A stretch of DNA of 64,000 bases from Escherichia phage vB_EcoM_YN3: sequence record PV763136.1. One strand, written 5' to 3'. Both the position numbers and the translations under genes were made by a program. Shown one piece after another: positions 47,710 through 48,443 of the stretch. Numbering within the stretch: the first letter of the stretch is position 1; each line of letters begins with the position of its first letter. The notes under the pieces were generated by a model that saw nothing but the letters and a program-made list of their open reading frames with translations, searched no databases and was not told the origin of the DNA.

Positions 47710-48443
47710 TTATCCTCTCCTGCGCTTAGCTTTCGCAGCAGCTGCGGCAGCCTTCTGCTCCCGCTCCATTTCCCTGTTTTGGACGGTATCTAGGAATTCT
47801 TCGATATCAAGATACTCACAGAGCTTCAGGAAATACGCCATATCTGCAAGATTTAGCGATTCAAAATTTTCCCCTTTGAAATTCTTGAGCACCCTGCACC
47901 AAAGAAAGTCGAACCAGTTAAGTGAACTGTTCTTAGCTGCCCACTCACTGGCCCTCACAACAACCTTGCTTATTCCTGCTCTTCCGGAGTCTGATCCAGA
48001 TTGTTCACCTGCTGGATCATACCCATCTGCTGTAACATCTCCAGAAGGCTTCCTAAACCGTCTTGTGTGAAAAAACAGCCGTAGTTAACCTCCAGAACCT
48101 TACCTGCCAGCTTAATCATCTCCAGCAGATGCCCTGCAAACACAACATCAGGGTTAAGCTTATCCACACCATCCACGGTAATATCTTCGAACAAGATTTT
48201 AAATAACTCTTCAATAGAGTTATCATCAAGTTCTTGGAACAGGTAAGCCAGGGCTGTAGGAAGGACCTCTGCCATATTCTGACCGCCTGAGAGAATAGAT
48301 CCACCGATAGCACCTAGCGGGACAGCCACAATCTTACCGATTTTAGGCATGTTTTTCATTGCTTTCATCGGTCCCCAGTGGGTGATCACAAAGTTGTGCC
48401 CTGCTAAATCAATCTCTGTTGTAGGTCTAAAGTTTATAGCCAT
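47710..48443 (-). CDS. tail assembly chaperone, predicted -1 frameshift fusion (gpGT-like, about 244 aa)
   Basis: The -1 frame opens at a stop (plus 48085-48087) three codons before the heptamer and stays open to the stop at 47710; the downstream track ORF 47710-47958 has only a GTG start. Confidence 0.5.
47970..48443 (-). CDS. tail assembly chaperone (gpG-like, zero-frame product)
   Basis: 157 aa between tube and tape measure genes; contains slippery heptamer U UUU UUC (plus 48069-48075) in the zero frame (…GCFFTQ…). Confidence 0.6.
   Translation of the reverse strand: MAINFRPTTEIDLAGHNFVITHWGPMKAMKNMPKIGKIVAVPLGAIGGSILSGGQNMAEVLPTALAYLFQELDDNSIEELFKILFEDITVDGVDKLNPDVVFAGHLLEMIKLAGKVLEVNYGCFFTQDGLGSLLEMLQQMGMIQQVNNLDQTPEEQE

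Follow-up and report, generated by a model that had tools for sequence, protein, structure and literature searches.

In phage lambda, the two tail assembly chaperone isoforms G and GT have a common N-terminus and arise, one short and one long, from a -1 slip on an X XXY YYZ site near the 3′ end of gene G, and the system is reportedly the subject of work by Levin, Hendrix and Casjens in 1993 and by Xu, Hendrix and Duda in 2004, 2013 and 2014. Phage P2, a contractile-tail phage, has a poly-U slip site (T TTT TTG) for its E and E+E′ proteins, whose genes are placed with respect to those for tube and tape measure as in the locus described here. Lambda-type sites have no obligatory RNA stimulator, and their arrangement is conserved despite sequence divergence; the G:GT ratio is 30:1 in lambda, and P2-like phages have a 2- to 3-fold higher efficiency (PMC5009743).

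Among the Ounavirinae, a chaperone frameshift is stated in the genome paper of Citrobacter phage Moogle (PMC4319497), and the record of Citrobacter phage Mijalis (Mooglevirus) gives the gene as a joined CDS, while the RefSeq entry of Salmonella phage FelixO1 still lists two separate CDSs. A paper of December 2025, in the passages retrieved from it, predicts -1 programmed ribosomal frameshifting in the tail assembly chaperone (TAC) locus of Vandenendeviridae (Pseudomonas phage Adele, Pakpunavirus; 56 alleles) and Andersonviridae (231 genomes), the signal being an invariant GTTTTT near the 3′ end of TAC-N together with an uninterrupted -1 frame that reaches the tape measure gene, and the downstream ORF being misannotated as a hypothetical protein (PMC12846349). 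The same passages relate both families to the Vequintavirinae and Stephanstirmvirinae, and hold no mention of a TAC frameshift for these two subfamilies. Moreover, our literature search found no paper describing a chaperone frameshift in Vequintavirus or rV5-like phages: the genomics/proteomics paper on rV5 and the cryo-EM papers on phiTE and phi92 mention neither a frameshift nor a chaperone, chaperones not being expected in virions. Here we describe a chaperone locus of a Vequintavirus whose sequence points to a -1 frameshift of this type.

Results

Gene order and frame anatomy of the locus

The window, a 64,000-nt stretch of Escherichia phage vB_EcoM_YN3 (PV763136.1), belongs to a Vequintavirus (rV5/FV3-like myophage), and its region 45300-50500 shares 96-99% identity with more than 100 Escherichia Vequintavirus phages (rV5, FV3, Murica, ECP2303 and others). 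About 20 records labeled 'Campylobacter phage' (e.g. A13b, MG065677.1, 140.9 kb) show ~97% identity to E. coli Vequintaviruses at this locus, and the host labels of these Vequintavirus-like records look doubtful.

Pfam and PHROG assignments gave the minus-strand order sheath, tube, TAC, -1-frame extension and tape measure (Table 1), with a Dit-like protein and a Pam3_gp18-like plug among the further genes of the region on the same strand. The tube gene carries a tail tube annotation in BASEL phage records. The product of gene G matched Pfam Phage_TAC_15 (PF21822) over residues 15-129 with an E value of 1.1e-23 (84.5 bits; gathering cut-off 22) and phrog_3840 'tail assembly chaperone' with an E value of 6e-69, and PF21822 was present in 73 out of 73 homologs. 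The tape measure protein is the expected binding partner of the chaperone. The location of the gene pair between the tube and tape measure genes, as proposed in the initial annotation, agrees with the coordinates of all four reading frames.

Table 1. Features of the tail-module region of the window (PV763136.1)
Feature	Coordinates	Strand	Remarks
Tail sheath	50466-49090	-	DUF3383, phrog_205
Tail tube protein, 157 aa	48606..49079	-	Pfam KPP10_Orf10 E 4e-9; phrog_280
Sigma-70-like promoter TTGACA-17-TAAAAT	48487..48515	-	11/12 with TG; consensus match only; upstream of chaperone gene
Gene G, 157-aa tail assembly chaperone, zero-frame short product	47970..48443	-	Phage_TAC_15; phrog_3840; ATG at 48443, stop at 47970
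GGAGG	48089..48093	-	SD-like candidate, 13 nt upstream of heptamer (ctG GAG Gtt = Leu-Glu-Val)
TAA closing the -1 frame	48085..48087	-	Three sense codons (CTA CGG CTG), then heptamer
Slippery heptamer T TTT TTC (U UUU UUC)	48069..48075	-	tgT TTT TTC = Cys-Phe-Phe, codons 123-125
T part, -1-frame extension	47710..48069	-	119 codons + TAA; open until TAA 47712-47710
GT, predicted fusion, 244 aa	complement(join(47710..48069,48069..48443))	-	G codons 1-125 + 119 codons
GTG, GenBank/RefSeq start of 82-aa 'hypothetical protein' (47958-47710, phrog_10409)	47956..47958	-	Without Shine-Dalgarno core
Terminator-like hairpin	47673..47706	-	14-pair stem + T tract; between GT stop and tape measure start
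Tape measure protein, 777 aa	45322..47655	-	Pfam TMP_3 E 4e-18; phrog_5255

The T TTT TTC near the 3′ end of G is the sole X XXY YYZ heptamer of its kind among the 157 codons of the gene. The zero frame around it reads ...GTT AAC TAC GGC TGT TTT TTC ACA CAA... and the -1 frame reads GGT TAA CTA CGG CTG TTT TTT CAC ACA AGA CGG..., and the interval in which a shift can produce a fusion is bounded by the TAA at 48087-48085 and by the G stop at 47970. The zero-frame phasing of the heptamer, the opening of the -1 frame three codons upstream, its length to 47710 and the size of the fusion had all been put forward in the initial annotation, and every figure was reproduced. The predicted GT junction reads ...NYGCFF followed by HTRRFRKPSG..., and the tryptic peptide that would span it is VLEVNYGCFFHTR. 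The C-terminal 82 residues of the T part match phrog_10409 and phrog_8811, both of unknown function. On this sequence evidence, the Vequintavirus chaperone gene very probably makes a longer second protein by a -1 slip on U UUU UUC. The sequences show the architecture of the site and its deep conservation, whereas the ribosomal nature of the slip, its efficiency, a possible contribution of the upstream GGAGG and the role in assembly are inferred.

The chaperones of Felixounavirus and Mooglevirus are homologous to that of the window (30% identity; FelixO1 BLASTP E 4e-14), and the alignment continues through the junction: LEVNYGCFF-HTRRFRKPSGDV in the window versus LEANFGSFF-RSKHFQKPNFSV in FelixO1 and Mooglevirus. 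FelixO1 and Mijalis have the same T TTT TTC (codon 118-120) with the same GGAGG 13 nt upstream of it, and their -1 frame spans 94-95 codons and ends at the tape measure start. However, the G tail past the slip is only 8-10 codons long in FelixO1 and Mooglevirus compared with 32 in the window, and their T domain is shorter and without detectable sequence similarity to that of the window. Lambda G/GT occupies the same gene position, but lambda is a siphovirus, and neither its G nor its T has detectable sequence similarity to the proteins of the window (Pfam: Phage_TAC_15). The P2 E protein family is also unrelated to the window chaperone at the sequence level.

Conservation of the layout among related phages

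A tblastn search with the fusion matched ~490 phage records, down to ~29% identity, each with the two halves in different frames. For detailed comparison, 17 annotated loci and 22 loci from uncultured viral contigs (39 in total) were used, plus three from Ounavirinae. One of the two patterns in the viral-contig scan held the Phe-Phe peptide; this set is partly ascertained for amino acids, and is free of ascertainment for codons or for the preceding T. The frameshift layout was kept in all 39 loci (25 distinct sequence contexts), down to ~28% identity, with the following taxa covered: Vequintavirus, Seunavirus, Henunavirus, Certrevirus, Klebsiella phages, Phapecoctavirus, Justusliebigvirus, Aeromonas Plateaulakevirus, Rheinheimera Barbavirus and uncultured contigs. 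The -1 frame of these loci is 95-130 codons long and ends just 5′ of the tape measure gene. Every locus examined of the Vequintavirinae (the first five groups of that list), of the Stephanstirmvirinae (Phapecoctavirus and Justusliebigvirus) and of Aeromonas Plateaulakevirus has an in-frame T TTT TTC at chaperone codon 121-153, with a -1 frame that opens 1-12 codons upstream of the heptamer and runs for 111-130 codons.

An in-frame T TTT TTC was found in 37 loci and another valid heptamer in the remaining two, so that three heptamers (T TTT TTC, C CCU UUU and G GGA AAG) share a homologous site. In contig L032 the Phe-Phe is lost (peptide APFM) and C CCU UUU lies one codon upstream, followed by the same T domain; in Rheinheimera Barbavirus the lambda heptamer, G GGA AAG, occupies the homologous site, with the same T domain in the -1 frame. 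In these two lineages the -1 frame opens 19 and 31 codons before the heptamer. Such an exchange between valid heptamers at one position is to be expected under selection for ribosomal slippage. No natural in-frame fusion was found among the 73 database homologs of the fusion, all of which are 149-159 aa long; hence no lineage has fused the frames. Taken as sequence evidence, the architecture of the site and its conservation in related loci strongly support the G/GT-type -1 frameshift that the initial annotation had predicted.

Two further arrangements were observed in these loci. In Rheinheimera phage Barba18A (NC_048189.1; locus L017, 1826-2464), the T frame and the tape measure gene are separated by an inserted HNH endonuclease gene of opposite orientation. 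A group of Stephanstirmvirinae loci (L005, L006, L014, L015, L033-L039) contain C CCT TTT TTC, in which C CCU UUU and U UUU UUC overlap within the same phase series; both heptamers of this double site feed the same -1 frame, and the fusion yield might be raised by it.

Evidence for translation of the downstream frame

Conceptual fusions of 13 lineages could be aligned collinearly from end to end, and the junction is flanked by invariant residues: NYG(C/P)FF is followed directly past the junction by xxR-FR, then by a linker of variable length rich in Gly, Ser, Asp and Pro, and then by a conserved T domain (...KNSSLxWFDYLxCR...LKLNEYLD...) in which A165, L175, W177, E210 and Y211 are invariant or nearly so. 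The nucleotides of the linker also encode the C-terminal tail of G, which is better conserved, and this fits a low-constraint spacer. An invariant CGGTTT, 9-14 nt 3′ of the heptamer, is explained by dual coding, specifying Arg-Phe in the T frame and Gly-Phe or Gly-Leu in the G frame. Judging by this conservation pattern, ribosomes read the -1 frame from the slip site on.

The public records imply a different arrangement, namely two independent genes, of which the downstream one starts at the GTG at 47958 and encodes a separate 82-aa protein without any frameshift. Each of the 17 inspected records, from Vequintavirinae, Stephanstirmvirinae and other phages, annotates either a pair of separate CDSs or nothing; a joined CDS occurs in none of them, and the Murica record marks a 3-nt 'RBS' ahead of the GTG. 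Nevertheless, the annotated starts do not correspond between relatives and frequently fall inside the conserved domain, and no Shine-Dalgarno core of at least 4 nt precedes any candidate start at a suitable distance in any lineage. Five lineages have no possible start codon (ATG, GTG or TTG) anywhere from the slip site to the conserved T domain, and independent initiation is thereby ruled out. Moreover, the conserved protein sequence starts with the RFR motif at the slip site, all candidate starts lie downstream of it, and the absence of stops from the -1 frame throughout the overlap is unexplained if the overlap is untranslated in that frame. We therefore regard two independent genes as highly improbable, and the GTG is most likely, from its sequence context, an internal Val codon of GT. 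The search for a ribosome-binding site and start of the downstream ORF, which the initial annotation had named as the observation that would speak against a frameshift, found no Shine-Dalgarno core in any lineage, and the frameshift reading stands. The public calls of the downstream ORF in the 17 records are of 43, 51, 58, 60, 71, 77, 80, 82 or 88 aa, or none, and the T part alone, used as a database query, retrieved only three gene-caller fragments of 80-82 aa.

Chance, artefact and polymerase slippage

The 65 long ORFs of the window contain 52 in-frame X XXY YYZ heptamers. At 51 of them the open stretch of the -1 frame does not exceed 33 codons, compared with 121 codons at the chaperone heptamer (48075-48069), which is the only one whose -1 frame extends far past the zero-frame stop (86 of the 121 codons). 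The same ORFs contain 30 Phe-Phe dipeptides, and only the one at the chaperone site has the slippery form NNT TTT TTY. In a recoding null, the G protein was kept fixed and its last 32 codons (the overlap) were recoded synonymously with the codon usage of the phage itself; the -1 frame remained stop-free across the 32-codon overlap in 9.5% of the trials for the window and in 1-46% for the individual lineages, and the product over 14 lineages is ~1e-16, a joint value that overstates independence because these lineages share kinship.

These tests speak against a chance arrangement, in which the open -1 frame would have no function, and against a sequencing or assembly artefact, in which a T5 or T7 would have been misread as T6. 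Homopolymers are error-prone, and the record of phage CL1 and those of more than 250 relatives disagree by one T, but the same T6C is present in more than 100 independently sequenced Vequintavirus genomes (95-99% identity) and in distant genera, so that the probability left to chance or artefact is close to nil.

A homopolymer run at the site also brings in transcriptional slippage, by which RNA polymerase would drop one U within the T6 run and some mRNAs would encode GT in frame. The CL1 (Felixounavirus) record, with T7 and the long form in frame, illustrates that a change in run length does yield the fusion. However, productive slippage in bacteria has been described for runs of ~9 A or T (PMC5009743), and the chaperone run has 6 T. 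The C CCU UUU (T4) and the non-homopolymeric G GGA AAG of relatives fit tandem tRNA slippage and not polymerase slippage, and the strictly conserved X XXY YYZ phasing matters to ribosomes only. Slippage by the polymerase is thus very unlikely, and a ribosomal slip accounts for the phasing as well as for the alternative heptamers.

The record of Escherichia phage CL1 (OK040806.1; locus L040, 1274-1915) has T7 at the slip site and a single in-frame 213-aa 'tape measure chaperone', and the more than 250 records related to it match over 641 nt rather than 642. The T7 may reflect a sequencing error in the homopolymer, or it may be a genuine variant that would make the long isoform only. CL1 was considered as a natural in-frame fusion and discounted on the basis of this one-base homopolymer difference from its relatives. 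A T6 run that acts as a mutational switch, as in a T7 variant such as that of CL1 making the long form only, is a possibility.

Elements that may set slip efficiency

A downstream pseudoknot, for which the initial annotation had suggested a prediction, was found neither by minimum free energy (MFE) folding nor by RNAalifold or Rfam. MFE folds of 45, 70 and 116 nt downstream of the window heptamer had z values of -1.5 to +0.7 relative to shuffles (116 nt, z = -1.5), and the folds were no more stable than shuffles in 13 out of 14 relatives. RNAalifold across 11 lineages returned zero conserved pairs downstream of the heptamer, and Rfam matched nothing at the site except for a sub-threshold chance match to GcvB. 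Aeromonas phage 4L372D (locus L016, ~1519-1560) is the sole lineage with a tight hairpin, located 5 nt past the heptamer (-15.9 kcal/mol, z = -3.4). This hairpin may be a lineage-specific 3′ stimulator, and the upstream SD-like element is absent there.

An SD-like core (4 nt or more) is found 13-14 nt upstream of the heptamer in Vequintavirus, Seunavirus, Henunavirus, Stephanstirmvirinae and FelixO1/Mijalis, and absent from Certrevirus-like, Klebsiella, Aeromonas and Barbavirus loci. Larsen et al. reportedly found in 1994 that an SD spacing of 10-14 nt is permissive. The GGAGG is a possible lineage-specific enhancer of the slip; as a defining stimulator it was rejected, since it varies by lineage and is confounded with conserved Leu-Glu codons. 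In dnaX, an internal SD 10 nt upstream stimulates the -1 shift (PMC5009743; PMC4066793). Assignment to the dnaX-type class, with a conserved SD ~10 nt on the 5′ side and a 3′ hairpin, was likewise rejected, as GGAGG is not universal and there is no conserved hairpin.

In E. coli, the heptamer U_UU.U_UU.C is a member of the efficient H_HH.U_UU.Y class, and IS elements make use of it (PMC4066793). In an E. coli reporter, the -1 shift for the bare heptamer, with the IS911 stimulator and with the IS3 pseudoknot, respectively, is 0.12%, 0.89% and 7.6% for UUUUUUC; 0.21%, 3.0% and 11.7% for CCCUUUU; and 0.28%, 3.8% and 43% for GGGAAAG, which makes the lambda heptamer more shift-prone than that of the window. 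Since the bare heptamer of the window gives only ~0.1% in the reporter, very little GT may be made unless the surrounding sequence contributes. The expected yield is low, perhaps from ~0.1% to a few percent, which is the regime of lambda (G:GT ~30:1).

One tentative reading, to which we give a rather low probability, is that Vequintavirinae, Stephanstirmvirinae and Ounavirinae set their G:GT ratio without a 3′ RNA structure, through the internal SD-like GGAGG at a constant 13-14 nt upstream of a moderately slippery U UUU UUC, and that lineages without GGAGG compensate otherwise, with features such as the C CCU UUU UUC double heptamer and the tight hairpin of the Aeromonas phage.

Transcription signals and structure models

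A terminator hairpin is located at 48566-48589 on the minus strand, between the tube and chaperone genes, and the near-consensus promoter follows directly after it; the chaperone and tape measure genes may therefore constitute their own transcription unit inside the tail module. Unlike the candidate starts of the T frame, those of the chaperone gene (AAGGA, 48457-48453) and of the tape measure gene (GAGGA) are each preceded by a Shine-Dalgarno sequence. The strong terminator-like hairpin ahead of the tape measure gene lies within a 54-nt gap, its equivalent is annotated as a terminator in phage Murica, and it might lower the tape measure mRNA relative to the chaperone mRNA.

The AlphaFold2 (AF2) model of G (48443-47973) has a pLDDT of 69.5 and consists of a beta-hairpin followed by helices. 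A Foldseek search of the PDB with this model gave no match at E <= 0.001. Its best neighbor, which is non-significant, is 5ir0, ORF19 of a Vibrio cholerae PICI-like element (probability 0.92, E 0.28, TM 0.59 on the target). This phage-satellite protein of unknown function could conceivably have a chaperone-like fold. The T-domain model is unreliable (pLDDT 50.8), with ~30 disordered residues and then four helices predicted.

Discussion

The G/GT mechanism and the Ounavirinae site were already known; what is new is the Vequintavirus site, which is unannotated in the inspected records. By the sequence evidence above, it is very probably a conserved G/GT-type -1 frameshift site, homologous to the annotated Ounavirinae site. 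Under the proposed mechanism, most ribosomes would read G to its stop and produce the 157-aa G protein. A minority would slip back by one nucleotide on U UUU UUC with one tRNA-Phe in the P site (UUU) and another in the A site (UUC), the two tRNAs would re-pair to UUU UUU, and translation would go on for 119 codons in the -1 frame. The resulting GT of 244 aa would thus consist of G residues 1-125, a linker rich in Gly, Ser and Asp, and the conserved, mostly helical T domain. In analogy to lambda G/GT and P2 E/E+E′, the tape measure protein would receive a coat of many G and few GT copies, and the T domain would recruit the tube protein so that the tail polymerizes to the right length. On the same analogy, G and GT would both be needed for tail assembly, binding the tape measure and tube proteins, and both would be absent from the finished virion.

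The main value of the finding is in annotation, and the understanding of frameshifting or of tail assembly is unchanged by it. In the inspected records the T part appears as a 'hypothetical protein' with inconsistent starts, or as a gap of ~300 nt. A join annotation with ribosomal_slippage would drop a spurious gene family (phrog_10409, 8811 and 16039) and correct the chaperone isoforms. The genomes concerned include more than 100 of Vequintavirus and many of Seunavirus, Certrevirus, Phapecoctavirus and Justusliebigvirus, for which uses in phage therapy or biocontrol exist or have been proposed. If the reading in which GGAGG sets the G:GT ratio is true, these lineages would form a natural set of variants in which the tuning of frameshift efficiency could be studied. 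The poly-U slip site of the chaperone gene, noted so far for Ounavirinae and Vandenendeviridae, is extended here to two more subfamilies, and the shared slip site supports a common ancestry of the tail module of these subfamilies.
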